DNA of 64,000 bases from an uncultured Planctomycetia bacterium (GCA_964406665.1 CAYOSQ010000002.1:118219-182218); one strand, 5' to 3'. Positions 34,997 through 64,000 are shown, counted from the first letter of the stretch. Numbers and translations are program-made. Notes: a model not told the origin generated them from the sequence alone.

Positions 34997-34999
34997 TGA

Positions 35000-35386: not shown

Positions 35387-35472
35387 CTTTCCTCCTTTTA
35401 AGTTTTTTATATATTAAAAAATATAATTATTGTCCTATTGTTTTGTTTAGCTACCACCTCCTTTTGTTTGCC

Positions 35473-36705: not shown

Positions 36706-36708
36706 TTT

Positions 36709-38421: not shown

Positions 38422-38424
38422 TTT

Positions 38425-40385: not shown

Positions 40386-40912
40386 ATTTTTAATTCAACA
40401 CTTAAATTTTCTTTTTCTTCAACCACGTTTTGCTCTCGAGCACTTTTGGAAACAGACAGGCTGCTAATGAAAAGTGACTTTTTGTTATTTTCCAGGCTGC
40501 TAATGAACTTGCCTAACCTAGCAAAATCAGTTTGAAAACCTAGTCTTATAGGAAATTTTGTATATAAGCCTTTATCAATGGGTACCTCTGGATTAAGTGA
40601 TTGAATTGAAATGTTATTATTTTTTAACGTCTCAGTAGCAATTTTAATTAATTCGTCAGTAGATGCTCCTTCCAGTGAATCTTTTTTGTAGCCGCTAATT
40701 TTGACATCAAGATCAACAATTTCTTTAATATGCTTTTCAAGCTTCAGCTCTTTCGAAAGAGTTTTTCTGAAAGCTGAAATTTTTTTGGATTTATTTACAA
40801 ACATTGATCTTGCGAACAGTAAAGAAACAAGAGCAATGGCAACACTAATTGCAATTGTTTTATTTTTTATGATTTGTTCAACATCAATTTTTTGTAAAGA
40901 TTGAATATCCAT
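40364..40912 (-). CDS. pilO: PilO-like inner-membrane pilus alignment protein.
   Basis: Single TM, a coiled coil and a periplasmic domain; located between pilMN and pilP. Confidence 0.5.
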   Translation of the reverse strand: MDIQSLQKIDVEQIIKNKTIAISVAIALVSLLFARSMFVNKSKKISAFRKTLSKELKLEKHIKEIVDLDVKISGYKKDSLEGASTDELIKIATETLKNNNISIQSLNPEVPIDKGLYTKFPIRLGFQTDFARLGKFISSLENNKKSLFISSLSVSKSAREQNVVEEKENLSVELKIWSVLIK

Positions 40913-40913
40913 T

Positions 40914-43954: not shown

Positions 43955-44359
43955 CTACCTGCCTTCGTTAGTTGCTATGTTTACTCTGTTAATACCTAGC
44001 TCTCTACAAAGATCCCAAATTTCAACCACGCGTCCTAAAGAAGCTCTTCTATCTGATTTTATCAACAAAGGTTTACTTCTTTTAGCAATTCTCTTTAGCG
44101 CTGTTTGAAGCTCTTTCATTGTGACAACACTCTCGTTAAGATAAATAACGTTTTCCCGCGAGACTGTAATAATTGCACTTTCTTCCTGAATAACTTCGCT
44201 GGTTACGGCCCTGGGAAGATGTACTTTAATCCCTGGATGAAACATAAAAGATGAAGTAAGCATAAAAAATATCAAGAGTTGAAATACAACATCGATTAAC
44301 GGAGCAATATCAATTTGGGTTAAGCCGTGTTCTAATTTTGAGTGGCGTTTAAATTTCAT
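43955..44359 (-). CDS. exbD: Biopolymer transport protein ExbD/TolR.
   Basis: IDIAPLIDVVFQLLIFFML N-terminal TM and an ExbD periplasmic domain; 134 aa. Confidence 0.85.
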   Translation of the reverse strand: MKFKRHSKLEHGLTQIDIAPLIDVVFQLLIFFMLTSSFMFHPGIKVHLPRAVTSEVIQEESAIITVSRENVIYLNESVVTMKELQTALKRIAKRSKPLLIKSDRRASLGRVVEIWDLCRELGINRVNIATNEGR

Positions 44360-44365
44360 CTATTC

Positions 44366-45037
44366 CTATTTTCTCCTACTCTCTTTATATTGAGTAACAA
44401 AATTAGTAAGTTCCGTGGCTGAGCGCTCCATATCCAAAACGTGACTATTTACTCTACTTACAAAGTAGTTATAGGCTAAAAATGTAACGATAGCTACCGA
44501 TAAACCAAATACTGTTGTAATTAAAGCCTCCCAAATTCCACCAGCAAGGTCTCCGGGGTTAACTGGATTAATTGAAGTTGCTTTAATTTGAATTGTATGA
44601 AAACACTTAACCATCCCCGTAACAGTTCCCAGTAACCCCAGTAGCGGAGAAATATGGCCGATTGTCGCCAATATGCTAAGATGGTTTTCCAATCTAGGAA
44701 TTTCGTAAAGACTCGCATCTTCCATCGATTCTTTGATTTCATCACGGGAAGATTCCAAATTAAGCACACCTGCCCTCAAAATATTGGCGACAGGAATACG
44801 GGCATTCGTACATATACCTATGGCAGCTTTAATTTTATTGTGTTTAATTTGATCAACCACAGAATTCAGGAGCTCTCTGGCATTACCCTTAAACTGAATA
44901 TTCAGCTGCCAGAATTTTTCTCCAATTATGGCTAAAGCAACTATTGAACATGATAATATTAACCACATTAATGGCCCACCTGCTAAAAATATTTTCCAGG
45001 CGCTTGAATTCCAAAAACCCATTACTACCTCCTTCAA
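44366..45037 (-). CDS. exbB: MotA/TolQ/ExbB proton-channel protein.
   Basis: A 3-TM ExbB/TolQ core with the ATIGHISPLLGLLGTVTGM conserved region. Confidence 0.85.
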   Translation of the reverse strand: MKEVVMGFWNSSAWKIFLAGGPLMWLILSCSIVALAIIGEKFWQLNIQFKGNARELLNSVVDQIKHNKIKAAIGICTNARIPVANILRAGVLNLESSRDEIKESMEDASLYEIPRLENHLSILATIGHISPLLGLLGTVTGMVKCFHTIQIKATSINPVNPGDLAGGIWEALITTVFGLSVAIVTFLAYNYFVSRVNSHVLDMERSATELTNFVTQYKESRRK

Positions 45038-45047
45038 TTCTTAATAA

Positions 45048-50404: not shown

Positions 50405-51496
50405 TTATTTTTTAATGCAGCTTATAATATAGTCTTGTTCTTTTTTGGTTAAATACGGATGCATAGGTAAGGCAAGAATATCTTGAGCCATCATTTCAGA
50501 AATTGGAAAATCACCCTTTTTATAATTCAAATATTTGAAGGCAATTTGAAGATGAAGTGGCTTAGGATAATAAATACCGGTTGGAATATTTGCTTTTTTT
50601 AGACGGCTTATAAGTTTTGAACGGTTATTAACCCTGATGCAATATTGTGCAAATACAGATTTATTATGCCCTAGAATTATTGGTGTTTTGACAATATTGC
50701 TAAGTGCAGCGTTGTAGCGCTGAGCCACCTTCTGCCTTAATTTAAGCTCCTGATTAAAATAAGAAAATTTAGCAAGTAAAACTGCAGCCTGCATAGAGTC
50801 TAGCCTAGAATTGGTTCCTACTAAAATGTTGTCGTATTTATTTTTCCCTTGTCCGTGCACCCTAAGCGAAAAAAGTTCTTTGGCAATTTTTGAGCTATTG
50901 GTGAATATCATTCCACCGTCCCCATAGCATCCTAATGGTTTAGCCGGAAAAAACGATGTGCATCCAATATCTGCCAAAGAGCCAGCACGTCTTTTTTTAT
51001 ATGTTGCGCCAAAGGATTGCGCAGCATCTTCAGCAACAAAAAGCTTATGTTTCCTTGCAATTTTATTAATCGTATCATAATCAGCACATTGACCAAAAAG
51101 ATCAACAGCAATTATGCCTTTTGTTCTTTTGTTTATTTTTGATTCTATTTTTTCTGGATCAATATTGAATGTATCTTCTTTTGTATCTATGAAAACAGGC
51201 TTTGCTCCCAGCAAGGCAATTGCTTCAGCGGTTGCGACAAAAGTAAATGGAGTTGTAATTATCTCATCTTTAGGTTTTATTTTTAGTGTCCTAAGAGCCA
51301 AAATGAGTGCATCAGTTCCAGAGGCACAGCTTATTGCGTATTTAGTGCCAACAAATTCAGTCAGTTTTTTCTCAAGTTTGCCAACTTTAGAACTCAGTAC
51401 ATAAGTTGACGTATCTAGAACATCATGAAGTTCTCTATCGATTGAGATTTTGTACTTTTTATACTGTCTTTGAAGGTCTATAAAATTAATTTTCAT
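50405..51496 (-). CDS. DegT/DnrJ/EryC1/StrS-family PLP-dependent sugar aminotransferase.
   Basis: SCASGTDAL and the lysine region; 363 aa. Confidence 0.85.
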   Translation of the reverse strand: MKINFIDLQRQYKKYKISIDRELHDVLDTSTYVLSSKVGKLEKKLTEFVGTKYAISCASGTDALILALRTLKIKPKDEIITTPFTFVATAEAIALLGAKPVFIDTKEDTFNIDPEKIESKINKRTKGIIAVDLFGQCADYDTINKIARKHKLFVAEDAAQSFGATYKKRRAGSLADIGCTSFFPAKPLGCYGDGGMIFTNSSKIAKELFSLRVHGQGKNKYDNILVGTNSRLDSMQAAVLLAKFSYFNQELKLRQKVAQRYNAALSNIVKTPIILGHNKSVFAQYCIRVNNRSKLISRLKKANIPTGIYYPKPLHLQIAFKYLNYKKGDFPISEMMAQDILALPMHPYLTKKEQDYIISCIKK

Positions 51497-51549
51497 TTTG
51501 TCTTAAATTATTTAATTGGCTATTTATTGACTGACATTCTATCATTTTC

Positions 51550-52338
51550 TTAGGTTTTTTCAGCAAAAATTACCGCGAACTTGGTGGCTAACTCTTCATC
51601 TCTATATCTTTCAAAATCATTGTGAATTTTGTTTTTGGACTTAAATTTTAGAAAGTCGTTCATTGCTACATCCCGATCAAGAATTCTTGATTTAAATCCA
51701 GCTTCTTCTAGAATGTTTAAATGATCAATAACCCTAAGTCTAGAAAGTCCCGTGCCTATTCTTCCCCATGTTTTTTTGTTAAACTTATAAAAATGAAACG
51801 GGTATTTAAAAAAATGATCTCGGTAATCAATTCTATGAATCATGCAAGCCCCGGAATTCATAACTTCCTTTAATTGATGGCATAATTCTGAAAAATTTTC
51901 TACATATTCTAGGACACCATTTGATAAAATTATATCTATTTTTTGTAGTTTTAGCGTTTTTAGGTCGGTTATCCTTTTTACTTTATTTAGAATAGATGCA
52001 TATTCAGGAGTTTTTTTAATAATGCTATCATCAAACTTTTTGTTAAATTTAACATAGGGTTCGAATGCATAGCATTCTTTTGCACCTAAATAGGCAAGTT
52101 TATAACAAGTACTACTTGTAACACCGACTCCTAGCTCTAGAATAGTCTTATCTTTTATGTCGCGACCAATTGATTTTATGAATTTTAGGTACCTATCAAT
52201 TATGGTATCGGGTGAAAATTGTGCTGAGGTGATAGTATAGCCGGGAATAAAATTTCCATATTTTACTAAAAATTGATAAGAAAACAAATATTTTCTTACC
52301 AGTCTCAAAAAAATATATTCAATATCGTTCAATAACAT
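51550..52338 (-). CDS. Putative class I SAM-dependent methyltransferase.
   Basis: ILELGVGVTSS glycine-rich motif I and a downstream acidic motif. Confidence 0.5.
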   Translation of the reverse strand: MLLNDIEYIFLRLVRKYLFSYQFLVKYGNFIPGYTITSAQFSPDTIIDRYLKFIKSIGRDIKDKTILELGVGVTSSTCYKLAYLGAKECYAFEPYVKFNKKFDDSIIKKTPEYASILNKVKRITDLKTLKLQKIDIILSNGVLEYVENFSELCHQLKEVMNSGACMIHRIDYRDHFFKYPFHFYKFNKKTWGRIGTGLSRLRVIDHLNILEEAGFKSRILDRDVAMNDFLKFKSKNKIHNDFERYRDEELATKFAVIFAEKT

Positions 52339-52357
52339 CTTTCTCTAATAAAAAAGT

Positions 52358-53746
52358 TTAAAATGGTAACAAAATCAAAGCTTGGTTCCTTAATGCATGT
52401 TCAACACCAATGGGTACTGACCACATTGCACAAAAAAGCAGAATTGAAACTATTATAAATCCACCCAATTTAGTTTTAAAGTGTTTATTAATAAAATCTC
52501 CAATGTTGTGAAGCACAACAGCTGATAAAATTGCAATAGCCGGATATGCAGGAAGCATATAGCGATTCTCTCTCGTATTAAAAATAAAAGATAATAAACA
52601 AAAATATGTCAATATCCAAATAATCAAAAAAGACTTTTTTTCATCAATAAAGCCTTTTATAAATGGTCCAAGTAAAATTACAAAATAACTTAAAAGAAAC
52701 ACAGGTACTAAATATGGAATTGCTATAAGATATAAATAAGCTGGTCTTTGTGAAATAGTCATAAACCAACCCTCTTGCTCCATTGCGCTGTGTTCTGGCT
52801 TAGGGCCAAAAAGAGGATCCCCATAAATATTGTAAACTGAAGCGAACCAATGAAGCGTAATAACGAAAATTCCCAATAAAATCAAAAAATTATTTTTATT
52901 GAGAATTCTTTTGAAAAATTGGCTCAAATTTAAAGAAACTTTTTTTTCGTAAAACAGCGAAAAAATTAAAATAGCAATTACTATAAATCCACCAGTTTGC
53001 TTCACTAGAATAGAACATCCAATAATTAAACCAGTAGCGAAGTAAACAAAGCTATTTAGTTTTTTTCTAGATATAAAATATGTCAAAACAGACAAAGTAA
53101 CTAAAAAAGAAAGCATTGTATCCGCCCAAATTTTTTGTGAAGATAGAATATCAATAGGAGAAATGGCAATTAAAAAAGCTGAAATAAGGGCAATCTTTTT
53201 AGTGTAAAATTCCTTTGCGAGTAAAAAAGTAGTAAAAATGAATAACAAGCTGAACAAAAAAGGTATGAACGCAGCATAAAGCTGCAAATACCAAATTGTT
53301 TGCGCATTAAAAGTTTTTGCATGAGTTTGATTGTTGTAGTATGTAGTTTTTAATGTAAAAAATGGATTATTTCTTGAAAAAATCCTATGAGACAGCATTA
53401 AGCTGTAAGGAAAGAAATAAGGTCTGTGAAATAAAGGTTGGTCGTAATAATGCACTCCTGCTGATTCAAGATTTTTTAGCATGCTCCCTTTTTGCGTTTC
53501 TGAAAGGAAAAAGCCTAGAATTTGGTTATTGAATTTTTCGTCAACATTTCTTAATGAATATCCACTGAATCCCAATTGGTCAAGCTTCATAGCAAGCGAT
53601 AGATAAAAGACTTGATCGCCGTTATCGTGAGGCAATGTAAATGTAGAAAATCTAATGGAGGCTGCGAAAATCAGAATAAGCAAAATAATCGTTGTAGTTG
53701 ATAACAAGCCTTTTTTCATCCTATCCAACCTTTTCCTTTTCTTCAT
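52358..53746 (-). CDS. GT-C fold membrane glycosyltransferase (PMT/ArnT-like, GT39/GT83-type).
   Basis: A polytopic ~11-TM protein (462 aa) whose first periplasmic loop carries acidic residues (HDNGDQ). Confidence 0.5.
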   Translation of the reverse strand: MKKRKRLDRMKKGLLSTTTIILLILIFAASIRFSTFTLPHDNGDQVFYLSLAMKLDQLGFSGYSLRNVDEKFNNQILGFFLSETQKGSMLKNLESAGVHYYDQPLFHRPYFFPYSLMLSHRIFSRNNPFFTLKTTYYNNQTHAKTFNAQTIWYLQLYAAFIPFLFSLLFIFTTFLLAKEFYTKKIALISAFLIAISPIDILSSQKIWADTMLSFLVTLSVLTYFISRKKLNSFVYFATGLIIGCSILVKQTGGFIVIAILIFSLFYEKKVSLNLSQFFKRILNKNNFLILLGIFVITLHWFASVYNIYGDPLFGPKPEHSAMEQEGWFMTISQRPAYLYLIAIPYLVPVFLLSYFVILLGPFIKGFIDEKKSFLIIWILTYFCLLSFIFNTRENRYMLPAYPAIAILSAVVLHNIGDFINKHFKTKLGGFIIVSILLFCAMWSVPIGVEHALRNQALILLPF

Positions 53747-54764
53747 TTTTTAAAAGAAATTCTTTGAGTTCAAAAAGACCACCAAAGCTTGCCATAAAGA
53801 GTGTTATGGAGAAAATAATTAAAGATGTAGCAAGTGCATAAGAAGGCGCGATTTCATATCTTCCTAATAAAACTACAAAAGCACCCTCCCTTACCCCTAA
53901 TCCAGATATGGACACTGGAAGCATCTGGACAAAAACAACCGCAGCTCTAATCCAAACAATTGGTAGTATGGATATTTTAATACCTAGTGACTGTATTATA
54001 AGATAAATAGAGGTAATTCCAAATAAGTGAAACAATAAAGACAGAAACAAAGTAAAATTCAAAGTACACAATGGTAACGAGTGAAACCTCCTAATTGAAC
54101 TCCAAAGATTATCCGATTTTTGTTTCAAAAAGCTTAACAAGTTTAATGAAAATAATTTTGCTGATAAATTCTCTAAGAAATTTGAAATAGGCTCATTTAT
54201 TATGCTTAAGTAAGTCAGAGTTGAAATAAGTAATCCTGTTAATAAGCATAAACCAATTGCTAGAGAACCCAACGGAAGTTCAATCCAGAAAAAAATTATT
54301 CCTAAAACAGCAAGACATAAAACGTTAATGATCCTAGATAATGCGATGCTGATAAATGTTTGAGACCGCATATTATTATCTCTTGAAAGCTTATGCCATT
54401 TCACTAAGCCTCCGGAAAGCTCACTTGGCAAAAATAAACTGTAAAATTGAACAACAAAATTTATTTTTACTAGCTCAAGAATTGTAAAATTAATATTTTG
54501 ATGTTTTAAAAGTAGTCTTAGCTGAATCGCGCTAAAAAAACGCATAGAAAACTGTAGTAATAGAGCTACTGAAACATATGCTATTTTTGCCTGAGATAAA
54601 GCTGAGAAAACTTCACTTATGGGAATTTTTTTAAACAGATAAATAAGTATACCAATGGCAATTGAAATCTTAATAAGGAAAACTAATGTGTTTTTTGTTT
54701 TGTTTTTTTTGCTCATGGATTTTTTTATAATATTTCTACCACTTAACTCGTTCAAACTTACCAA
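53721..54764 (-). CDS. Flippase-like membrane protein (LPG_synthase_TM / UPF0104 family).
   Basis: 8-TM pattern with LRLLLKHQNINFTILELVKINFVVQFYSLFLPSELSGG. Confidence 0.5.
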   Translation of the reverse strand: MVSLNELSGRNIIKKSMSKKNKTKNTLVFLIKISIAIGILIYLFKKIPISEVFSALSQAKIAYVSVALLLQFSMRFFSAIQLRLLLKHQNINFTILELVKINFVVQFYSLFLPSELSGGLVKWHKLSRDNNMRSQTFISIALSRIINVLCLAVLGIIFFWIELPLGSLAIGLCLLTGLLISTLTYLSIINEPISNFLENLSAKLFSLNLLSFLKQKSDNLWSSIRRFHSLPLCTLNFTLFLSLLFHLFGITSIYLIIQSLGIKISILPIVWIRAAVVFVQMLPVSISGLGVREGAFVVLLGRYEIAPSYALATSLIIFSITLFMASFGGLFELKEFLLKNEEKEKVG

Positions 54765-56190
54765 ATATTCTTTTTAACACATAAGGACTAATTTTGATAA
54801 AATTCCAAATTGTTCCATCTTTTATCATTAAAATCAATAAACGGGCAATGTGAGCTGGTCTCAGATAAAATCTTTTATATGCTAAGTTGGTCAAGCGTAA
54901 AACTTCCTCTTTTGGCAATTCTTTACTTTCGCAAAAATTTTCTCTTTCACTTTCTCCTGTAAGAAAATCCATTTTCCGGGGTGTGAAGTAGCCCTCTTTT
55001 ACTGCCAAATCATATAATTCAGTTCCGCGAATAATAGAAACAGGATTAAAGCTAGCCCAATCAGCAATTTCCAGAGTAAGTTTCATAGTTTTTTCAATGG
55101 TTTCTTTGGTTTCTCTAGGATAACCAATCATGATAAAAGCATGTGTTTGCATACCTATTTTCCTACAAATTGCAAAAGTCTCTCTAATTTTTTCAATCGT
55201 TATCCCTTTTTTCATAAAGTTCAAGATTTCTTGATCTCCACACTCCACGCCGAAATCAATTTTATAGCAACCTGCTTTTTTTAGAATTTCTATCATTTCT
55301 TCGTCCACAGTATCAACGCGAGTAAAAATCGTCCAGCGAATCTTCAAGTTCTTCTCTATTATTAAATTGCAAAATTCTAAAACATCTCTTTTCCTAGATG
55401 TAAATGTATCATCTCTAAACCATATTTCTTTAATCTTAAATTTTTCAATGCAATTTTCTAACTCTTCAAAAATCCTTTTACCGCTATTGAATGTAGCATG
55501 AGAACCCCAGACAGCCTGCGTGCAAAAAGCACATTTAAAAGGACAACCACGAGAAACAGTCATGTATGTCCAAGGTTTTAATGCAAGATAGGGCCCGTAT
55601 AGATTATTTTCAAGAAAATGCCTGTCAGGAAAAGGAATAACATCTAAATCCTTTATTCTCGGCCTTTCAGAATTTTTGATAATCTTCCCATCAACTTTTA
55701 CGATTGTTCCAGCAATTTTAGTAGGAATTTTTTTATTCACCCTATATTGATTAACAACTTCTAATAAGGTAGCCTCCCCCTCTCCAATTACACCAATTTG
55801 AAATACATCAAGATTCATAATTTCTTCTGGGTCTACGGACATATGTGGACCACCGATTATCCTAAGTTTTTCAGGAAATAATTCCTTGCACAACACTCCA
55901 ATTTCAATTGCCCCAGGAATAGTTTCAGTCATAGTTGTTATACAAATTATATCAGGATTGAATTTTATGATTCTTTCTTTAGTTTGTTCAAGGCTAAGAT
56001 TTAATGCTTGAGAATCCAGAATTTGAATTAAATCACTTTTTTCATCATTTTTTAATACAGTTGCTAGATAAACTAATCCTAGGGGCGGATAAGAATTAAC
56101 AGCTAAAGGATATCTGCCTGTACCTTTCGAATGCCTTGAATGATGTTTGATAAAGAGTATATTCATATGTTTAATGACTACACCTTTCAT
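54736..56190 (-). CDS. B12-binding domain radical SAM enzyme (class B).
   Basis: An N-terminal cobalamin-binding Rossmann domain is followed by the CxxxCxxC site in VSRGCPFKCAFCTQ. Confidence 0.85.
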   Translation of the reverse strand: MKGVVIKHMNILFIKHHSRHSKGTGRYPLAVNSYPPLGLVYLATVLKNDEKSDLIQILDSQALNLSLEQTKERIIKFNPDIICITTMTETIPGAIEIGVLCKELFPEKLRIIGGPHMSVDPEEIMNLDVFQIGVIGEGEATLLEVVNQYRVNKKIPTKIAGTIVKVDGKIIKNSERPRIKDLDVIPFPDRHFLENNLYGPYLALKPWTYMTVSRGCPFKCAFCTQAVWGSHATFNSGKRIFEELENCIEKFKIKEIWFRDDTFTSRKRDVLEFCNLIIEKNLKIRWTIFTRVDTVDEEMIEILKKAGCYKIDFGVECGDQEILNFMKKGITIEKIRETFAICRKIGMQTHAFIMIGYPRETKETIEKTMKLTLEIADWASFNPVSIIRGTELYDLAVKEGYFTPRKMDFLTGESERENFCESKELPKEEVLRLTNLAYKRFYLRPAHIARLLILMIKDGTIWNFIKISPYVLKRIFGKFERVKW

Positions 56191-57094
56191 TTAGCAATTT
56201 AGTATTGAGTAAATTTGAATGCCCTCCCAAAGCCTCTACTAAAAAAGACCCAAAAGCATTACCAGTGGCAACAGATTTGACTAGATCTTTTTTTTCTAAA
56301 TAAGTTGCTAAAAAGGCAGCAGCAAATCCGTCACCAGAACCAGTTTTATCAACAAAAATGTTGCAAGGATAGGCAGGAAATCTTAAGATCACTTTTCTTC
56401 CCACTATTTTACAGCCTTTATCGCTAAGCGTAGTGATAATGTAATCTATGTTAAAATCAACTAAGATTTTTTTTACTGTTTTTCCAAGTTTTTTTTCTAG
56501 TATTGTGCATTCTAGTTTATTTAAAAAGAGCATATCTGTAATTTTTAAAATTTCCATTAATTCAGTCTTCTTATATGAGCTCATTTCATGTCCTGGGCCA
56601 AATGCTTTTAACGCATTAGGAAAATATTTCATAAATTGCAAATTTAAAGCTGGGCTTCCCGAAGTAGCAAAAACAATCTTGGCATCAACTTTCTTAATAT
56701 GATTAGCTAAAAAACGTTTAATTTCTTCGAGTTTTTCAAACCATAAGCCCGGATAAAAATTGATGATACTTGACCTACGATTTAGAGAAATCAACGCTTT
56801 TGGTAAAGTTGAAGATTTTATTTTTAAAATAGCCGAATCATTAATTCCATTTTTTTTAAGATGATCTTTCAAGCCAGAAGAAACATAGTCAAAACCTACT
56901 GCGCTAACCATCAAAGTGTTTTTTGTAAATAGTCTTGAAGCTGCAATAAAATTGAGCCCTCTCCCGCCAAACAAAATATTGCAATCTTTAATCCTTGAAA
57001 GACTATTCTTTCTTCTATTTTTGTCTGTCTTGCAGAAATTGTCAATTACGCATTCACCAAAACATGCTATATCAAATATTCTTTTTTTGCTCAT
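56171..57094 (-). CDS. PfkB-family carbohydrate/ribokinase-like kinase.
   Basis: An N-terminal GG motif and a C-terminal DKTGSGDGFAAAFL anion hole. Confidence 0.8.
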   Translation of the reverse strand: MSKKRIFDIACFGECVIDNFCKTDKNRRKNSLSRIKDCNILFGGRGLNFIAASRLFTKNTLMVSAVGFDYVSSGLKDHLKKNGINDSAILKIKSSTLPKALISLNRRSSIINFYPGLWFEKLEEIKRFLANHIKKVDAKIVFATSGSPALNLQFMKYFPNALKAFGPGHEMSSYKKTELMEILKITDMLFLNKLECTILEKKLGKTVKKILVDFNIDYIITTLSDKGCKIVGRKVILRFPAYPCNIFVDKTGSGDGFAAAFLATYLEKKDLVKSVATGNAFGSFLVEALGGHSNLLNTKLLNERCSH

Positions 57095-57111
57095 TTTGTA
57101 AACAATTAAAA

Positions 57112-58266
57112 CTAGAAAGCACCCATTTTATTCAATTTGATAATTTCATTTGTTAAGCTGATCCATAAATCCTTAACCTGAGTTTTTTTAATAGCAGAGG
57201 TGCCAATTTTAGAAAAATACTCCATAGCTTTACTTGTATAAATTTTTTCTTTATCTTTATCGATCGCCAAATAAAGCATTAAACTAACCATCCTAAAATA
57301 AACAATTGGTTGAAAATTCCAAAAAAGTTTTAAAAAATTATACTTTTTCAATAAAATGTAACTAATTTTTAACTTTTTATAAAAAAAACAGATTTTGTCA
57401 AAAAAAGGTAAATACGAATTACTCCAAGTCTCATAATACAATATTCCCTCAGCCTCATTTTCTTTGTCCATCGCAAATAAAAAAGTATCTATTAAGTGCT
57501 GTCTTGTTCTTAACCAATATTCGTAGGTTTGTTCAATTGCAATTTTGTCCGTATGTTCAAAAGTAAATTTGTATGCAGCGTTGAGATCACCTAGGAAGTT
57601 TTCTTTGTTAACCACAAATGCACGCAGCTTCCCATTCATTAATTTTATTCTCTCACTTATAAATGAACTATAGCAGTGATTATAAATCGTAATAATATCT
57701 GCACAGGTAAACATCGTTTTTGCAGCTGCGTAACTCAACGATAATAAAGCATCTCTGGAAGATGAATATAAATCATCCGGCGAGCACTTACTGATATTGA
57801 GCATTGTTCTGTTAAAAAAAATTGCTTCAATAGCACCCTTGTCTAAATCTTTTTGACTTACCTTAGGTAAAGTGTTAAGTAGGTTCTTTCCATAAATGAC
57901 CTTAGCAGTTTGGCAAAGATCAAATGAATGCGTATCTTTTGGATAAAGCTTTACTTTTAAAAGAGACTTTATTTTTAAATCAATATTTACTTTTAATCTA
58001 TTCCCGATCTGATTAATTTCGTTAATTAGATTATTTGGAACTTTTCGAAGTGTTTTAGAAATCAGCAATATATCTAGATCCGAGAGAATGTCTACGTCTC
58101 CATTTTTCTCTTTCCAGATACCTTCTCCTCTAGAAAAACTCCCGACTAGCATTATAGAACGAATATTATTGCCAATGTGTTTTTCCGCGGCTTTAGCAGT
58201 CAAATCTATAGCTTCATCGATACGCTGTTGAGCTTCAGGATTATCCTTCCAAAACATTTTCATCAT
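57112..58266 (-). CDS. Nucleotidyltransferase-fold (pol-beta superfamily) protein of uncertain subfamily.
   Basis: LVGSFSRGEGIWKEKNGDVDILSDLDILLIS, a minimal GS...DxD NTase motif, followed by a ~250-aa helical C-terminal region. Confidence 0.45.
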   Translation of the reverse strand: MMKMFWKDNPEAQQRIDEAIDLTAKAAEKHIGNNIRSIMLVGSFSRGEGIWKEKNGDVDILSDLDILLISKTLRKVPNNLINEINQIGNRLKVNIDLKIKSLLKVKLYPKDTHSFDLCQTAKVIYGKNLLNTLPKVSQKDLDKGAIEAIFFNRTMLNISKCSPDDLYSSSRDALLSLSYAAAKTMFTCADIITIYNHCYSSFISERIKLMNGKLRAFVVNKENFLGDLNAAYKFTFEHTDKIAIEQTYEYWLRTRQHLIDTFLFAMDKENEAEGILYYETWSNSYLPFFDKICFFYKKLKISYILLKKYNFLKLFWNFQPIVYFRMVSLMLYLAIDKDKEKIYTSKAMEYFSKIGTSAIKKTQVKDLWISLTNEIIKLNKMGAF

Positions 58267-58270
58267 AATT

Positions 58271-59506
58271 TTAATTGCTGATAATCAAACTTTCTCCATC
58301 CATCTCTGAATAATTAACTGATAACAGATTCAAAATTGTTGGCGTTACATCTTGCATTTTACATCTACTTTTTGAAAACTTCAGTTCTTTCTTGCTCCAA
58401 ATAAGCAATGGGGTAACTGAGGAATCATCAAAATAGCCGTGCATACCTTTAACTTTCGAAGAATGATAGAAGTCCGGAGAAAAATTTATACCTTTATTAG
58501 CCCAAAATATTAATTCTCCGTATTTGTCATTAACTGGTAATCTTTTTTGCCGCAGTTCATCCTTGGAAACCTCTCTGCCATATTTACCCAAAGACCTTAG
58601 TAAAGACCTTACTTCTTTTCGAGCCTCTTCTTTTTCAAACCAAAATCTAGCCATGGGGGAACTCAAAAAAACGAGATAGTCTTTAGCTAGCTTTGCATCT
58701 AATTGCTGCAATTCTTGCCATAAGTCAACATTATCCACAACCTCAACCATATTATGATCACCCATTACAACTAAAAACTCTAATTTAGATTCAACTAATT
58801 CATATATATATTTGATCGATTTATCGATCGAACCAATAACCTCTTTAACCTCAGGTGAATTAGGGCCATATTTGTGTCCAAAGCAATCAGTTTCTCCGTA
58901 ATGAAGAACAATAACTTGATCATCTCTAAGAGCGCACCTGGACATCTTTTTATTTATATGTTCTGCTGTGCCATAGATAGATTCTACCTTAAAGCCATTT
59001 TTTTTCAAAATACCCATAAGGTTGTCTGAAGCTCCAAGCTTCTCTGTTTTTTTTCTTTTTTGAACCGACTCACTTATAGAAAAATAAGGCAATAAAGATA
59101 TAGGGATTTTGGCGAAATCTATCCAAATTCCTGTAAATGCGAAATAGATACCAGTTAAAATCGAAATATCTTTCTGCTCTACCCAAGTCCTGTGTTTGAG
59201 ATAATATAGAAACCTCCAGAGTGGCTTTAAGTTTATTGAATTCTTATGCCGAAATAAATTCTTTGGCAGAGGAAAAATCTTAAGAAGCCGAAAAGGTAAA
59301 ATAGGCTGTCCAAAACAAAAATCAGTAAAAGTGTCTGTTGTTTGGGGTGATCTACCGCTTAATAATTCTATTCGCGTAGCAAAACTAGGAGTGATTTCCA
59401 TGGACAAATATTTTGATTTTTGTTTTACGCTAAAGAGAAAAGGCATAGACCTTTCATTTATATAATCTTCATTGCAGCCATCGATAATAATCAAAATACT
59501 TAACAT
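58271..59506 (-). CDS. Alkaline-phosphatase-superfamily enzyme (type I phosphodiesterase / nucleotide pyrophosphatase-like).
   Basis: LSILIIIDGCNEDYI N-terminal metal-site region plus VVMGDHNM and HYGETDCFGHKYGP. Confidence 0.45.
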   Translation of the reverse strand: MLSILIIIDGCNEDYINERSMPFLFSVKQKSKYLSMEITPSFATRIELLSGRSPQTTDTFTDFCFGQPILPFRLLKIFPLPKNLFRHKNSINLKPLWRFLYYLKHRTWVEQKDISILTGIYFAFTGIWIDFAKIPISLLPYFSISESVQKRKKTEKLGASDNLMGILKKNGFKVESIYGTAEHINKKMSRCALRDDQVIVLHYGETDCFGHKYGPNSPEVKEVIGSIDKSIKYIYELVESKLEFLVVMGDHNMVEVVDNVDLWQELQQLDAKLAKDYLVFLSSPMARFWFEKEEARKEVRSLLRSLGKYGREVSKDELRQKRLPVNDKYGELIFWANKGINFSPDFYHSSKVKGMHGYFDDSSVTPLLIWSKKELKFSKSRCKMQDVTPTILNLLSVNYSEMDGESLIISN

Positions 59507-59532
59507 GATACTACTTTATCACCTCTTGAAAT

Positions 59533-60246
59533 CTATTTATATGCAATGCAGCGTAGATGTTTTGCAAAAAAAAGTAAAGAATTCTTAATGCGTTCAGACA
59601 AAGAAACCTTATTAGAATATTTTATTTTAGGAAACAGCTTAATACGAAAGTTGTGCTGTTTTAATAAGCGCCATAGTTTAATGGGGTTTAGTACATTAAT
59701 ATGATATGGATCTTCTCTTGACATCCATTTAATCCTTATACCTACCATGTTTAATAGCCTGACTCCAAAAAGCATTATTATGTTCCATGAATTAGGTGTA
59801 GTGAGCACTAAATAGCCACCCCTTTTTAAGACTCTCCAAATTTCTTGTAGACAAGCTCCGCCATCATCACTATCTAAGTGCTCAATTACTTCCATTAATA
59901 ATACTTTATCGAAGCTTTCGCTAGCAAAAGGTAATCTAGTGGCCTCTGCTCTAATGACGTATTTATTTCCACCTTGGCTTGCAATCTGGACAGCTTCCTG
60001 AGAATAATCCATGCCTATGGCATGCGCACCATTATTATTGCAGATTTTTACTATTTCCCCTCTCCCGCAGCCGATATCTAGGATTCTATCATCTTTTTTT
60101 GGAGCTAACATATTCGGAACAAATTCATATCCACTAAATACTCCTTCTTTAAGAAAATCGTCTGGGGTCCGGCAAAATTCTGAATAATATTTTTTGTCAT
60201 AAAGTTGTGAGGCGTAAGTTTTCTTATTTCGTTTTTTAATTTTCAT
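59533..60246 (-). CDS. Class I SAM-dependent methyltransferase (Methyltransf_11/25-like).
   Basis: ILDIGCGRGE motif I and LLMEVIEHL. Confidence 0.75.
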   Translation of the reverse strand: MKIKKRNKKTYASQLYDKKYYSEFCRTPDDFLKEGVFSGYEFVPNMLAPKKDDRILDIGCGRGEIVKICNNNGAHAIGMDYSQEAVQIASQGGNKYVIRAEATRLPFASESFDKVLLMEVIEHLDSDDGGACLQEIWRVLKRGGYLVLTTPNSWNIIMLFGVRLLNMVGIRIKWMSREDPYHINVLNPIKLWRLLKQHNFRIKLFPKIKYSNKVSLSERIKNSLLFFAKHLRCIAYK

Positions 60247-60248
60247 TT

Positions 60249-61346
60249 TTATGAAAGTAGCTTTTCATATATAGATATATGATTATCTATTACAGAATTT
60301 AATTCGTGGGTCTTTTTTACATATTCATAGCCAGTTTCTCCAAGATTTTTCCAGCGATTATTCTCTAACAAAAATTCTAGCCCTTTAGCATAGTCATCAT
60401 TTTTTACGTAACATCCGAAACTTTTAGCAAAATCGTCAGGGTCTTGCTCAGTGCCACTTAAAATAGCGCACTTGTGCGCGGCGGCTTCAAGAAAACACAT
60501 GGGTAAGCATTCTCTAACAGACGTATTAATTAAAATCCAACTTTTCTCAAGAATATTTGAAAATTTTTCGTATGAAGAAAACTTATCTACAAAACCAACC
60601 ATTTCTAGATTGGGAATTCGGCCAAATTTTTCTTTCAAGTAATTATCATATTTTTCATCATGGCTCTTACCCAATAGTAAGAATTTCACATTCGGGAATT
60701 GTTTTGCAAGCAGACAGAATAGTTCCGGACGTTTAATAATATCAAGTCTTCCTACGAAACTAACTGTTGGGTTGACAGATTTGCTTAATTGCCTTTCAGG
60801 AATTGATATAGGATTTGGTAAAAATTCTGGGTCTTTTGACAATTTGTAAATTTTCTTAGCCTTTGGTATTACGAACTTAGCTTGACAGAAAACTGCATCA
60901 GCCATTCTAACACTTTGATTATTAAAGTAATTGTGTTCATAGATATATGATAAAGGAAAGGTTATTTTTTTTGAAGAAGTCCAATATTTATGAAAAATTT
61001 CCCAATCATGTTTATCTCTTGGATCCTGACAAGTTATTATGTGTTTTCTGCTCGGCATGCTTTTCATTGCTAGATATGTTCCGAAGGAAGGTTCTTGAGA
61101 ATGATAAATATCGGAATTTGTAAGTTTGTATAGTTTTTTTACAAACAAACAGTGACTGGGCTTAAAACCATATATGGTCATCCCGTCAAGCTTTTCGATA
61201 GGTTTCTGATTTTTCCGCAGAGGGACCACAACGGAGACATCGATGCCTTTTTTAACAAGCTCCTTTCCTATTGTGCGAGCTAAACTACCAAAACCACCAT
61301 ATTTACCATAAGCAAAAATTTGACTAACAACAAAACAAATCTTCAT
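60249..61346 (-). CDS. GT4-family glycosyltransferase.
   Basis: N-terminal ICFVVSQIFAYGKYGGFGSLARTIGKELVKKG and a C-terminal E-x7-E-like region (ECLPMCFLEAAAHKCAIL). Confidence 0.7.
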   Translation of the reverse strand: MKICFVVSQIFAYGKYGGFGSLARTIGKELVKKGIDVSVVVPLRKNQKPIEKLDGMTIYGFKPSHCLFVKKLYKLTNSDIYHSQEPSFGTYLAMKSMPSRKHIITCQDPRDKHDWEIFHKYWTSSKKITFPLSYIYEHNYFNNQSVRMADAVFCQAKFVIPKAKKIYKLSKDPEFLPNPISIPERQLSKSVNPTVSFVGRLDIIKRPELFCLLAKQFPNVKFLLLGKSHDEKYDNYLKEKFGRIPNLEMVGFVDKFSSYEKFSNILEKSWILINTSVRECLPMCFLEAAAHKCAILSGTEQDPDDFAKSFGCYVKNDDYAKGLEFLLENNRWKNLGETGYEYVKKTHELNSVIDNHISIYEKLLS

Positions 61347-61348
61347 TT

Positions 61349-62284
61349 TTATTTATTCTCTTTCATAATAGAATGAAATTCTGACAAAGTAGTAAATTTT
61401 GCTCCCAAACAATTAAAAAAATTCAAAATAGCTTCAATCCTTTTTAAAATTTTTCTAGAGTCTTTTTCTCTTTTAGAATAGGGGCTTACCCCAGGAATAA
61501 TCTCAACACTATGAAACATCATGCAGAAAAATATATTTTGATTGCTGTTAAATTTTTTTAAGAACCTTCTTATCAAAAGTTTTTGTTCTAAAACAGTCAT
61601 CAGGCTTGGTCTTAACCATGAATAATAGAACCACTTGCTAGGTAAAAAGGGAAATCTTTTCCCAGAGATGCTAACCGGAACCTCTAAAATCTCTTTCTCT
61701 ACTCCTTTTTTACCAAAATCTTTTGAATCCACGAAATAAGGTTGTTCTGGGAAATCTCTAAAATTTGGTCCGTTTTTTCTTCGCCAATCTACATGAGGAG
61801 TAACGCTGCTATCAACTAGATATCCAAGCTTAGTCAATGAATTAACAGAACTTAAATCAGCACCAAATCTGCCAGCTCGGTACGACGTTGGGTTAAAGCC
61901 AATTCTTTTTTTAAAAGAGCTTGTTATGTTTTTTAATTTCTCAAATTCTATATCGTCAGAATAATCCAGGCAAGCAAACTTCTCTGCTTTTTTCCCACTT
62001 GATTCTTCAAAATCTTTTTCAGGTTCAACAAATTCAGGATGTAGATGCACGCCGAACTCTTTTTTACCTTTTAGCGATAATAAAGCAGGAATACAGTTAT
62101 CATTCTTGATAATTTCTGGGCTCAAAAAATACGTTGGCGCAACTCCAGCCTTACTGAAAATTGGTTGGAGAAGATTAGGTATCCCATCCGTAACTGATTT
62201 AAAAGTTAACGGGGAGGATCGACTCCAATCAGCGGAACAATCTGGCTCAACGTCTATTGTGACAGCAACATAAATATTACTCAT
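61349..62284 (-). CDS. Putative polysaccharide deacetylase (CE4-like).
   Basis: VAVTIDVEPD metal-site-like motif and FGVHLHPEF. Confidence 0.4.
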   Translation of the reverse strand: MSNIYVAVTIDVEPDCSADWSRSSPLTFKSVTDGIPNLLQPIFSKAGVAPTYFLSPEIIKNDNCIPALLSLKGKKEFGVHLHPEFVEPEKDFEESSGKKAEKFACLDYSDDIEFEKLKNITSSFKKRIGFNPTSYRAGRFGADLSSVNSLTKLGYLVDSSVTPHVDWRRKNGPNFRDFPEQPYFVDSKDFGKKGVEKEILEVPVSISGKRFPFLPSKWFYYSWLRPSLMTVLEQKLLIRRFLKKFNSNQNIFFCMMFHSVEIIPGVSPYSKREKDSRKILKRIEAILNFFNCLGAKFTTLSEFHSIMKENK

Positions 62285-62299
62285 AAAACTTAGCTTTCT

Positions 62300-63421
62300 T
62301 CAAGATAAAGATTCGATGATTTCCTTGTAACTTCTTGATATTTTTGACCAGTTAAATTCTTTTTCAATTCTTGCTTTTGCTTTTTCACCTAACGCTCTTT
62401 GCAAAGATTCATCGTTTATCAACATAAGCAAAGATTTCCTAATAGCAACTTGATTCCTCGGTTCGACCAGAATCGCAGCATCCCCAACAACTTCCCTGCA
62501 TCCTCCTGCGTCGGAACTAATTATAGCCATTCCAGCTGACATAGCTTCAAGTAAAACTTCTGGAAAATTTTCTTTCTCAGAAAGAAAAACAAATATTGAT
62601 GACGTATTAAATAAATCATGAAACTCTTGAGATTCTTTTTCAACTCTACCTTTAAAATTAACTTTTAAATCCAGTCTTTGAGATATTTTAATTAATTCAC
62701 TTAAGTAAGGACCATCACCAACTATATTTATTTCGTAATCGAGGCTTAAATCTTTTATTGCTTCCAAGAAATATTGGAAACCTTTAAATTTAAAGATTCG
62801 AGAAAGCAGCAGTATCTTTTTTTCTTTTTTGCTTTGAAATTTAAATTCATTTATATCAATTCCATTTGGGATAACAGTTAGCTGCGGCACCACATTATTG
62901 GCTAACCCATCATTAATTAAATTACTTAGATATCCCGAAGCACAAGTAACTCTTTCCGAGTTTCTTAAAACAGCTTTCCATAAAGGTAAAAATAGTTTGT
63001 GTTCTAGCTTAAATCTTTCTGTATTATGTCCCGGGACATCCGAACCGTGTGCTGTAATGAAATACCGCAAGCCGGTAAGTTTCTTTATGATTAAGGCTAA
63101 AACTCCGGTTGGGAAGATAAAATGGGTGTGATTAATTAAATATTGATTTTTTTTTACTAATGAATAAACTTGAGGAACGGCAAGAACAATAAAAACTAAC
63201 ATCTCGATAATATTGCTCGAGTGTTTTTTTGATCTAATGCCTGGCATTCTAAAAATATTTATGTCACCAACTTGTTCTTTTCTGGGAAGATTTTTGTATC
63301 CCATGGTTACAACATCAATTTCGTAACCTAGGTCTACTAGTTTTTTGGCTAATTTATAAGATGCATAAGAGCCTCCACCTCCGATCGGAGGAAACTCGTA
63401 ATTAATCAGTAAAATTCTCAT
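62300..63421 (-). CDS. GT4-family glycosyltransferase.
   Basis: YEFPPIGGGGSYASY N-terminal glycine motif and a C-terminal FPEVLLEAMSAGMAIISSDAGG (E-x7-E). Confidence 0.8.
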   Translation of the reverse strand: MRILLINYEFPPIGGGGSYASYKLAKKLVDLGYEIDVVTMGYKNLPRKEQVGDINIFRMPGIRSKKHSSNIIEMLVFIVLAVPQVYSLVKKNQYLINHTHFIFPTGVLALIIKKLTGLRYFITAHGSDVPGHNTERFKLEHKLFLPLWKAVLRNSERVTCASGYLSNLINDGLANNVVPQLTVIPNGIDINEFKFQSKKEKKILLLSRIFKFKGFQYFLEAIKDLSLDYEINIVGDGPYLSELIKISQRLDLKVNFKGRVEKESQEFHDLFNTSSIFVFLSEKENFPEVLLEAMSAGMAIISSDAGGCREVVGDAAILVEPRNQVAIRKSLLMLINDESLQRALGEKAKARIEKEFNWSKISRSYKEIIESLS

Positions 63422-63429
63422 ATTTAGAA

Positions 63430-64000
63430 TTAAAGACTATCCTTCACCAGATAAGTTGGATGATTGCGACTTTCATGATAAATACGAGCCATCATTTCTC
63501 CCAGAAGTCCCATCATTATAATTTGGATTCCCAAAACAGAAAACAAGATTGCTAAATATAGCAAAGGATTTCCAGTCATGTCTTTACCCTGAACCAATTT
63601 TAAAATAATTAGCATTATTCCACATGCGCCACTTAAAAACAGGGATAATATACCCCAGGTTCCAAAAAGCTGTATGGGCTTAGTCGAAAAACTTAAGAGA
63701 AATTTTACAGTGATTAAATCCAGCACTTCACGGAAAGTTCTTGATAATCCATATTTTGTTTTTCCGAACTTTCTTGGGTGATGCTGAACTTGAATCTCAG
63801 CTATGTTAACACCGTTCCAGCTTGCAAGAGCTGGTATAAATCGATGCATCTCACCGTAAAGATTTATATTCTTTACTACATCTTTTTTATAGGCTTTTAA
63901 GGTACAGCCATAATCATGTAAGTGAACGCCAGTAATGATGGATATTAAAAAATTAGCTATTTTTGAAGGAATGCGCTTGGATAGAGGATCATTTCTTTTC
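63430..64000 (-). CDS. GT2-family polyprenyl-phosphate sugar synthase-like glycosyltransferase (ArnC/DPM-synthase-like). The C-terminal part is in the window; the N-terminus lies beyond 64000.
   Basis: My translation upstream of the annotated Met continues in-frame to the window edge: ...IANFLISIITGVHLHDYGCTLKAYKKDVVKNINLYGEMHRFIPALA...KFGKTKYGL. Two C-terminal TM helices follow. Confidence 0.8.
   Translation of the reverse strand, partial: KRNDPLSKRIPSKIANFLISIITGVHLHDYGCTLKAYKKDVVKNINLYGEMHRFIPALASWNGVNIAEIQVQHHPRKFGKTKYGLSRTFREVLDLITVKFLLSFSTKPIQLFGTWGILSLFLSGACGIMLIILKLVQGKDMTGNPLLYLAILFSVLGIQIIMMGLLGEMMARIYHESRNHPTYLVKDSL

Follow-up and report, generated by a model that had tools for sequence, protein, structure and literature searches.

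A conserved gene cluster that most likely builds a sugar-bearing envelope molecule in an uncultured Planctomycetia bacterium

We analyzed a stretch of 64,000 nucleotides from an uncultured Planctomycetia bacterium (GCA_964406665.1, CAYOSQ010000002.1:118219-182218), in the following called the window, for a cluster of glycosyltransferase and sugar-modifying genes at its end. Thirteen adjoining open reading frames (ORFs) on the minus strand occupy positions 50405-64000, with intergenic gaps of -29 to +53 nt. As judged from its gene content and its conservation, the cluster most likely builds a sugar-bearing molecule of the cell envelope. The whole cluster comprises 13 genes over about 14.5 kb, the larger part of which lies inside the window. 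It starts with a family 2 glycosyltransferase (GT2) gene, which runs about 380 nt past the window end and is complete on contig L001 (100% identical to the window), and its last gene is DegT. Protein families were assigned by Pfam and NCBIfam searches, and two ORFs without a Pfam match were assigned by AlphaFold2 structure prediction and Foldseek. The genes are listed below, starting with GT2.

63430..64000, minus strand: GT2, C-terminal 189 of 316 aa; ArnC/GtrB/DPM1-type, putative polyprenyl-phosphate sugar synthase; core
62300..63421, minus strand: GT4a, GT-B fold (family GT4) glycosyltransferase, BshA/MshA-like, cytoplasmic; core
61349..62284, minus strand: u311, 311 aa, soluble putative sugar N-deacetylase with the fold of carbohydrate esterase family 4 (CE4; NodB/ArnD-like); accessory
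60249..61346, minus strand: GT4b, divergent GT4 glycosyltransferase; core, most conserved gene of the cluster
59533..60246, minus strand: MT11, class I S-adenosylmethionine (SAM)-dependent methyltransferase; variable accessory
58271..59506, minus strand: AlkP, soluble member of the alkaline phosphatase superfamily (NPP/Phosphodiest type); first of the AlkP-NT384 pair
57112..58266, minus strand: NT384, 384 aa, Pol-beta-fold nucleotidyltransferase with a C-terminal helical domain, similar to aminoglycoside nucleotidyltransferases (ANT/AadA-like); second of the pair
56171..57094, minus strand: PfkB, ribokinase-like sugar or nucleoside kinase; accessory
54736..56190, minus strand: B12-rSAM, radical SAM enzyme with a B12-binding domain, class B architecture; near-core
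53721..54764, minus strand: LPGTM, polytopic protein of the MprF-flippase/YbhN/AglD2 family (PF03706, TIGR00374 'flippase-like'); core
52358..53746, minus strand: GT-C candidate, polytopic membrane glycosyltransferase candidate (PMT_2/PMT); core
51550..52338, minus strand: MT23, 262 aa, probable class I methyltransferase-fold protein, below threshold; accessory
50405..51496, minus strand: DegT/DnrJ/EryC1-family sugar aminotransferase dependent on pyridoxal phosphate (PF01041); strain-specific, last gene

On contig L001, the region 5' of GT2 holds an 85-aa ORF, followed by genes for aspartate dehydrogenase, PanC, HPPK and the diaminopimelate pathway. At the other end, UvrA begins 8 bp 3' of DegT and is followed by a periplasmic tetratricopeptide repeat (TPR) protein and ExbBD. 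The cluster is therefore bounded by housekeeping genes upstream and by UvrA downstream, which counts for a single cluster. A population variant of it was found on contig L006, where MT11 is called as two ORFs (3916-4625). A frameshift was ruled out here, as the apparent split is a run of Ns in the assembly.

Six diverged related loci (L007, L008, L090, L097, L098 and L099) were compared with the window. GT4b is present in all six with 50-66% identity, in addition to 72% identity over a fragment in L091, and GT4a in five of the six (40-47%). GT2 was found in L007, L008, L090 and L097 (49-65%), which are all four of the loci with enough flank. The same four loci and L098 contain LPGTM, the PF03706 protein (38-50%), and the GT-C gene occurs in five loci (36-51%). 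The gene order is GT2-GT4a-GT4b...LPGTM-GT-C in the window, L090 and L097, and GT2-GT-C-GT4a-GT4b...LPGTM in L007 and L008. Since this core is co-conserved across diverged genomes despite the rearranged gene order, it appears to constitute one system. A search of metagenome contigs with a GT4b alignment returned five loci, one of them useful, and a scan with the single GT4b sequence gave none.

The remaining genes are distributed unevenly. B12-rSAM is encoded in L007, L008 and L097 (57-67% identity) and absent from L090 and L098. AlkP (41-53%) and NT384 (35-44%) occur together in L097, L098 and L099, PfkB in L097 only (44%), and u311 (54%) and MT23 (60%) in L007 only, where the MT23 orthologue follows LPGTM. 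Methyltransferases at the position of MT11 in L008 and L098 are only distantly related to it, and no DegT orthologue was found in any of the six loci. The exchange of such genes is best seen between L090 and L097. These two loci are syntenic on both sides, with PlsX-FabH-FabD upstream and a TPR membrane protein, a response regulator and an HD-GYP protein downstream, and the AlkP-NT384-PfkB-B12 rSAM segment of L097 is replaced in L090 by a SPASM rSAM and a polysaccharide pyruvyl transferase. Sulfotransferase-like genes are found in L008, and a pyruvyl transferase with extra GT2/PMT_2 genes in L007. The cluster thus has a five-gene core, consisting of the ArnC-like GT2, GT4a, GT4b, the PF03706 protein and the PMT_2 GT-C, and its tailoring cassettes are exchangeable. 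Such a combination would be expected where a locus for a surface glycoconjugate is diversifying.

The nearest homologues of B12-rSAM and u311 are found in metagenome-assembled genomes (MAGs) of Candidatus Omnitrophica, which are also the closest named relatives of the six loci. By these homologues, the source of the cluster was judged to be an Omnitrophota-like bacterium. In the Omnitrophica MAGs L007 and L008 the cluster is flanked by DUF218 and EamA-transporter genes, which do not flank it in the window. In L090 (16280-18286) and L097 (15895-17895) the GT-C gene is directly followed by a gene for a protein of about 667 aa (47% mutual identity), whose polytopic N-terminal part (about 400 aa) carries an FVWDDE motif and which ends in C-terminal TPRs. 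It presumably resembles a second GT-C of the TMTC/PMT_2-TPR type. The 829-aa TPR protein of the window was ruled out as its counterpart and as a member of the system, because the similarity is at the level of the TPR repeats only.

Three of the products are membrane proteins. The part of GT2 inside the window, translated in frame 2, scores 117 bits against the ArnC model NF007986, and the full protein (L001 9042-9992) 234 bits (cut-off 529), followed by PgfS with 182 bits. The alignments with ArnC and PgfS cover its full length, and it has a GT-A domain and two C-terminal transmembrane (TM) helices, at residues 238-265 and 270-298. The GT-C candidate, with a probable start at about 53719 giving 453 aa, is polytopic with about 9-11 hydrophobic segments. 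It matches PMT_2 with 33.9 bits (gathering cut-off 26.1) and PMT (PF02366) with 29.8 bits (cut-off 22.7), both above the cut-off and both weak, and its orthologues in L007, L008 and L097 also match PMT and PMT_2. The first loop of about 110 residues contains an invariant GDQ, and D44, D102, W207-A208-D209 and K249-Q250 are invariant as well. PMT_2 is the Pfam family that contains ArnT. The MIR domain was not found by Pfam in any of the cluster products. LPGTM has a probable true start at about 54716 (331 aa in the JGI call) and matches LPG_synthase_TM with 129.9 bits. The cut-off of TIGR00374 is passed (56 bits, cut-off 43) and that of HpnL is missed (40 bits, cut-off 196). No TM segments were predicted for the two GT4s, u311, AlkP, NT384, PfkB, B12-rSAM and the methyltransferases, which are soluble. 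This division into membrane and soluble products would fit building in the cytoplasm followed by transfer on the outer face.

GT4a matches Glycos_transf_1 (107.5 bits) and Glyco_transf_4 (72.9 bits), and its best NCBIfam model is BshA with 97.5 bits (cut-off 273.7). The best sequence matches in the PDB are BshA (2jjm/3mbo/5d00), then PglA/PglH, MshA, PimB and PimA, the scores against PimA and PimB being 37-38 bits. BshA and MshA are UDP-GlcNAc transferases whose pathways proceed to a deacetylase. GT4b has lower scores for the same two domains (38.7 and 28.5 bits). For u311, no match was obtained with any Pfam or NCBIfam model. Its AlphaFold2 model, based on an alignment of 41 sequences, has a pLDDT (predicted local distance difference test) of 94.4. 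In the PDB it is closest by Foldseek to Mycobacterium smegmatis 3rxz, Helicobacter pylori HP0310 (3qbu) and Salmonella ArnD (8t0j), with E-values of 1e-9 to 1e-10, and barrels of the glycoside hydrolase family 57 (GH57) type rank after these CE4-type deacetylases. The invariant residues E13, D15, H80, H82 and H258 would fit a metal-dependent deacetylase. The u311 family comprises 444 homologues and has no Pfam model of its own; Polysacc_deac_1 is weakly matched by only 3 of the 41 aligned members. One homologue, in a Chitinophagaceae genome, is located among peptidase and other non-glycan genes, and another, in L101, within a large glycan cluster with GT2, GT4 and three PMT_2 genes. The contexts are mixed and give no general rule. 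DegT matches DegT_DnrJ_EryC1 (PF01041) with 373.7 bits, and its best NCBIfam models are PseC (227), WecE-type (209), LegC (191) and ArnB (179), all scores being far below the cut-offs.

AlkP matches Phosphodiest (64.6 bits) and Metalloenzyme (28.8 bits), with ENPP7, ENPP5, ENPP6 and iPGM as best matches in the PDB and D9, D207/H211, D250/H251 and H356 as invariant metal ligands. Its gene is directly upstream of NT384, and the two are adjacent in all four occurrences (window, L097, L098 and L099). NT384 gave no Pfam match. It carries the Pol-beta motif GSFSRGEG...LSDLDIL, and its AlphaFold2 model (pLDDT 84) resembles the aminoglycoside O-nucleotidyltransferases AAD(9), ANT(4') and AadA in Foldseek (E-values of 1e-5 to 1e-3, TM-scores of 0.35-0.40). 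A word-index search found 8 relatives, and an exhaustive profile search 44 representatives at E<=1e-30 and 1363 at E<=1e-10. Judged by these profiles, NT384 is a member of a sizeable unannotated superfamily. PfkB (115.9 bits; best NCBIfam model ribokinase, 78 bits, cut-off 300) accompanies the pair in the window and in L097. An ANT-like fold normally nucleotidylates hydroxyl groups. Speculatively, the AlkP-NT384(-PfkB) unit might act as a kinase, a nucleotidyl activation step and an AlkP-type phosphotransfer, resulting in a phosphodiester-linked substituent. A reading of the nucleotidyltransferase, AlkP and the radical SAM enzyme as a defence system was dropped, since a PADLOC scan gave generic weak matches only.

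B12-rSAM combines a B12-binding domain (60.3 bits) with a Radical_SAM domain (83.5 bits) and has the cluster motif RGCPFKCAFC. Its NCBIfam scores for HpnJ (204, cut-off 577.6), BchE (183), PhpK (152) and AprD4 (119) are all far below the cut-offs, and in the PDB it matches AprD4 (6fd2, 104 bits) and TokK (42 bits). Among characterised enzymes, the non-methylating HpnJ, BchE and AprD4 are thus its closest relatives, and the methylases PhpK and TokK come after them. The reaction could be a C-methylation or an HpnJ/AprD4-type rearrangement or dehydration. In the hopanoid side-chain pathway, HpnJ is a B12-type radical SAM enzyme which carries out the ring contraction to the cyclitol ether (PMC13459092). 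A scan of genome contigs with the rSAM alignment was saturated by the generic RGCPxxCxxC motif and says little about the cluster; it returned 80 distant rSAM loci (L010-L089) with at most 38% identity, a GT2 being nearby in 19 of the 80 and the core in none. L012 (1-19135), from MAG bacterium E14_metabat.bin.161, has a striking tandem array of eight B12-radical SAM paralogues with 26-35% identity to the enzyme of the window, next to an ArnC-like GT2 which is 49% identical to the cluster GT2. In L009 (6139-8418), an LPG_synthase_TM gene is again the partner of a B12-rSAM (41% identity), in an archaeal- or CPR (candidate phyla radiation)-like context, with family B DNA polymerase, UbiA, PAP2, GT2, a UDP-sugar dehydrogenase and an epimerase. 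The pairing of rSAM and PF03706 proteins therefore reaches beyond Omnitrophota.

Nearly all domain labels that a first, sequence-only reading had given to these genes hold in Pfam and NCBIfam searches or in structure prediction, with the truncated GT2 and the sub-threshold MT23 as caveats. The CE4-like deacetylase and the nucleotidyltransferase-fold protein are borne out by AlphaFold2 and Foldseek. Of the two SAM methyltransferases, MT11 is confirmed (Methyltransf_11, 82.1 bits); MT23 stays below the threshold of Methyltransf_23 (26.0 bits, cut-off 27), though it carries the motif I LELGVGV. The locus described as 13.5 kb long is a real cluster, but in full it extends over about 14.5 kb, and the end of the window truncates GT2. 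The co-directional arrangement with short gaps was observed as described, but it is true of the entire window. The term island does not apply in the sense of horizontal transfer, because the GC content is only slightly lower in the cluster (0.30-0.35) than over the first 50 kb (0.357).

On this basis we propose, as a reading we consider about evenly balanced between right and wrong, that the products form a two-compartment assembly line for a membrane-anchored glycoconjugate of the envelope. At the cytoplasmic face, a short glycan would be put together on a membrane-bound acceptor by GT4a (BshA/MshA-like, probably an N-acetylhexosamine transferase) and GT4b. A membrane lipid is favoured as acceptor, as for HexS/GpgS or PimA/PimB, since the trio of a GT4, a deacetylase and a PF03706 protein makes aminoglycolipids in the HexSDF and GpgSDF systems. 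In this strain the glycan may be N-deacetylated by the CE4-fold protein u311 and further tailored by the SAM methyltransferases and the B12-radical SAM enzyme. The module of kinase, ANT-like nucleotidyltransferase and AlkP would plausibly add a phosphodiester-linked substituent, and DegT would provide an amino-sugar donor. The lipid-linked intermediate could then be translocated by the PF03706 protein, and on the outer face the GT-C would add a sugar from the polyprenyl-phosphate-sugar made by GT2. By analogy, we favour that the PF03706 protein handles a glycolipid rather than, or as well as, a polyprenyl carrier.

Several observations weigh against this proposal. As to the acceptor, no priming phosphoglycosyltransferase, acyltransferase or lipid-synthesis gene is present in the cluster. 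None of the products comes near the NCBIfam cut-off of a characterised enzyme. The Pfam scores behind the GT-C assignment are weak (34 and 30 bits), and a sequence-profile search of the PDB gave no match for it. For the phospho-substituent step, an ANT-like nucleotidyltransferase is an unusual fold for sugar-1-phosphate activation, and the usual nucleophile position of AlkP is not conserved. Co-transcription gains no support from promoter and terminator scans, which were at chance level around the cluster, and UvrA abuts it. To our knowledge, flippase activity is unproven for PF03706 proteins other than MprF. For GpgF, the flippase role is a prediction only (PMC12713373).

The sequence-only reading had centred on the transfer of a sugar through a polyprenyl-phosphate carrier. 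Domain searches do not reassign the GT-C candidate to a transporter family. Four or five diverged loci keep GT2, the PF03706 protein and the GT-C together, although in rearranged order. The statement that there is no Wzx/Wzy/Wzz and no standard O-antigen or capsule locus agrees with the lack of matches to these families. Such a relay is therefore still the best reading of these three genes. The view of the GT4s as decorating enzymes has to be given up, as they are the best-conserved core genes (GT4b with 50-66% identity in 6 of 6 loci), which suggests that something is built in the cytoplasm and not merely one sugar moved outward. The predicted product, an amino sugar with a methyl and possibly a phospho substituent, would at most be the variant of this strain and not system-wide, because none of the six sister loci has DegT, one each has the deacetylase and PfkB, and some have the methyltransferases. 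Regarding the flippase-like protein, which had been read as part of the polyprenyl-phosphate route, a finished glycolipid is at least as likely a cargo, as the experimentally studied GpgF and HexF belong to operons whose aminoglycolipids are made by a GT4 and a deacetylase (PMC12713373).

The cluster is part of a remarkably long run of co-directional genes. Over the whole 64 kb, all ORFs of 150 aa or more lie on the minus strand with short gaps, once those overlapped by a longer minus-strand ORF are set aside, and the GC skew is uniformly negative over positions 1-64000. The stretch mixes housekeeping genes for IleRS, MreBCD, PBP2, RodA, aromatic amino acids and RuvABC with pilus and glycan genes. 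Since co-direction is a property of all 64 kb, it is uninformative on whether the 13 genes form one system. Outside the cluster, a gene for the 829-aa periplasmic TPR protein (YfiO/TPR_21-type repeats, signal-peptide-like N-terminus) is followed by ExbB and ExbD (43955-47537, minus strand). The promoter scan gave a single strong sigma-70-like site, at 47575-47548 (11 of 12 matches and an extended TG), which is located just upstream of this TPR gene and outside the cluster. The following pilus genes were also identified in the window.

33973-42422, minus strand: locus similar to type IV pilus and type II secretion system (T2SS) loci
40914-42422, minus strand: PilM-PilN fusion
40364-40912, minus strand: PilO-like protein
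38425-39927, minus strand: secretin
36709-38421, minus strand: T2SSE/MshEN ATPase
35473-36705, minus strand: T2SSF
about 34547-35386, minus strand: two small N_methyl prepilins

A different reading of the cluster is a system of the Arn/Gtr type, in which GT2 charges polyprenyl-phosphate, the PF03706 protein flips the carrier and the GT-C moves a single sugar to a pre-existing periplasmic acceptor, for example lipid A/lipopolysaccharide or another envelope glycan; the GT4s and the tailoring enzymes would serve donor synthesis or another glycan. The co-conservation of GT2, GT-C and the PF03706 protein is consistent with such a system, and so is the best model of GT2, ArnC, with an alignment over the full length (234 bits). 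The same is true for the match of DegT to ArnB-type models (179 bits), for ArnD among the top structural neighbours of u311 and for the placement of the GT-C in PMT_2, the family of ArnT. However, an ArnA-like formyltransferase/decarboxylase domain is not encoded in the cluster, nor is an ArnE/F or GtrA flippase, and none of the scores comes near the equivalog cut-offs. PF03706 proteins are not known to flip polyprenyl-phosphate-sugars, and most sister loci lack DegT and u311, whereas the GT4s are conserved. Taken as a whole, this reading seems to us unlikely, though a serious contender.

Alternatively, the PMT/PMT_2 enzyme and the sugar donor made by GT2 could modify secreted or surface proteins such as pilins, as in Ppm1/PMT or PgfS/PgfM. 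Such a protein O-glycosylation would agree with the PF02366 match above the gathering cut-off, with PgfS as second-best model of GT2 (182 bits) and with the pilus locus and its two N_methyl prepilins in the same window. The TPR protein with FVWDDE which follows the GT-C in L090 and L097 also recalls TMTC/PMT_2-TPR mannosyltransferases. This TPR protein is, however, unrelated to the one of the window, the MIR domain is lacking, and two core GT4s and the PF03706 protein would be left unexplained. The pilin acceptor considered in the sequence-only reading is not supported either, since its basis is a pilus locus 8-16 kb away in a region that is co-directional throughout, a neighbourhood which L007, L008, L090 and L097 do not share. 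Protein O-glycosylation is therefore improbable in our view. It could also be argued that unrelated genes of sugar metabolism simply lie side by side in a dense co-directional region. All 64 kb are on the minus strand with short gaps, UvrA is only 8 bp from DegT, the promoter and terminator scans are uninformative, and conservation in the sister loci does not extend to DegT, u311, PfkB and the methyltransferases. Against this, the five core genes are found together at 36-66% identity in at least two gene orders and with different flanks, and the AlkP-NT384 pair is always located inside such clusters. A chance assembly of this kind is hardly credible.

A bolder form of the assembly line, which we regard as very improbable, would produce a membrane-anchored aminoglycolipid or lipoglycan of a class not described so far. 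The two GT4s would build the head group, an HpnJ/calditol-synthase-like B12-radical SAM enzyme would remodel it (for example by contraction of a hexosamine ring to a carbocyclic cyclitol), and a new two-enzyme module of the ANT-like nucleotidyltransferase and a soluble AlkP-superfamily transferase would phospho-decorate it. The PF03706 protein would then flip the product, and the GT-C would extend it on the outside. If true, this would be a bacterial counterpart of the logic known from glycosylphosphatidylinositol (GPI) and phosphatidylinositol mannosides (PIM), with a head group remodelled by radical chemistry.

Members of the Omnitrophota are uncultured, often ultra-small and in part dependent on hosts, and hardly anything is known about the chemistry of their envelope. 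A conserved core with strain-variable cassettes would be expected of a major, diversifying surface molecule of such cells. The link of a PF03706 protein to a GT2/GT-C relay bears on the question of what the widespread PF03706 proteins translocate. In addition, a functional context is gained for the u311 and NT384 families, both without a Pfam model, and for the cluster-specific GT4b. The five-gene core is small enough for heterologous expression and lipidomics, as done for GpgSDF. In its overall logic the cluster resembles glycoconjugate pathways already described, and no concept is overturned by it alone. A literature search for this locus found no paper on it.

This familiar logic can be seen in the comparison with mycobacterial PIM, lipomannan (LM) and lipoarabinomannan (LAM) and with eukaryotic GPI and N-glycans. 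In these pathways, a lipid-linked glycan is built inside by GT4s (PimA/PimB'; PIG-A; ALG2/ALG11) and flipped, and GT-Cs (PimE/MptA; PIG-M; ALG3/9/12) extend it with polyprenyl-phosphate-mannose provided by a GT2 (Ppm1/DPM1). The GPI pathway also uses a deacetylase and phosphoethanolamine transferases of the AlkP superfamily. The cluster would follow the same order of building inside, flipping and extending outside. However, the similarity is at family level only (PimA and PimB with 37-38 bits), there are no inositol or phosphatidylinositol genes, and the AlkP of the cluster is soluble and not membrane-bound.

With the Arn system the cluster shares a predicted relay from an ArnC-type GT2 through a flipping step to a PMT_2-type GT-C candidate, and in this strain also DegT and a CE4-fold ArnD-like enzyme. 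In contrast to Arn, no formyltransferase (Formyl_trans), epimerase or dehydrogenase domain of ArnA is present in any of the 13 products, ORFs for ArnE and ArnF are lacking, and a PF03706 protein takes the place of the flippase of the small multidrug resistance (SMR) type. The scores remain low (GT2 234 bits against the ArnC cut-off of 529, DegT 179 against the ArnB cut-off of 631, with PseC higher), and the cluster has two core GT4s, with DegT and the deacetylase not conserved in the sister loci. GtrABC, CsbB-GtcA-YfhO and PgfS-PgfM likewise combine a GtrB/CsbB-like GT2 with C-terminal TM helices and a GT-C transferase, which takes the lipid-phosphate-sugar as donor on the extracytoplasmic side. 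Unlike GtrABC and CsbB-GtcA-YfhO, the cluster gave no match to the GtrA/GtcA family (PF04138) in any product, and it is far larger, with a cytoplasmic GT4 arm. The similarity to PMT enzymes (GT39) consists of the weak PF02366 match (29.8 bits, cut-off 22.7) and the invariant GDQ in the long first loop, without a MIR domain. Systems of the Wzx/Wzy type for O-antigen or capsule differ, as no match to Wzx, Wzy, Wzz/polysaccharide co-polymerase or an initiating phosphoglycosyltransferase was found in the cluster or its flanks.

The same trio of proteins as in the cluster, namely a GT4, a cytoplasmic deacetylase and a PF03706/COG0392 flippase-like protein, is responsible for aminoglycolipids in HexSDF of Clostridioides difficile and GpgSDF of Pseudomonas aeruginosa (PMC12713373; PMC10128005), and in this strain the putative deacetylase with its CE4-type fold directly follows GT4a. 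The relation of GT4a to GpgS is nevertheless at the level of the GT4 family only (50 bits against the GlcNAc-PG synthase model NF053787, cut-off 480). Without a Pfam or NCBIfam match, membership of u311 in the GpgD family (COG3233) is not established, and u311 occurs in only one of the six sister loci. The cluster further differs by its GT2/GT-C relay, second GT4, B12-rSAM and other genes. In HpnIJKL, a GT2 (HpnI), a deacetylase (HpnK), a B12-type radical SAM enzyme (HpnJ) and a PF03706-like protein (HpnL) are also found together. Here, the scores are 204 against 577.6 for HpnJ, with BchE nearly equal (183), and 40 against 196 for HpnL, no hopanoid (shc/hpn) genes are among the annotated genes of the window, and B12-rSAM is absent from L090 and L098. 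B12-rSAM carries an N-terminal B12-binding domain and a radical SAM core with the CxxxCxxC cluster motif, as class B radical SAM methyltransferases do, but the characterised enzymes closest to it are non-methylating. As far as the sequences tell, the cluster shares its logic with Arn, Gtr/YfhO, HexSDF/GpgSDF, HpnIJKL and PIM/LM, yet the comparisons that could be made place it in none of these systems.

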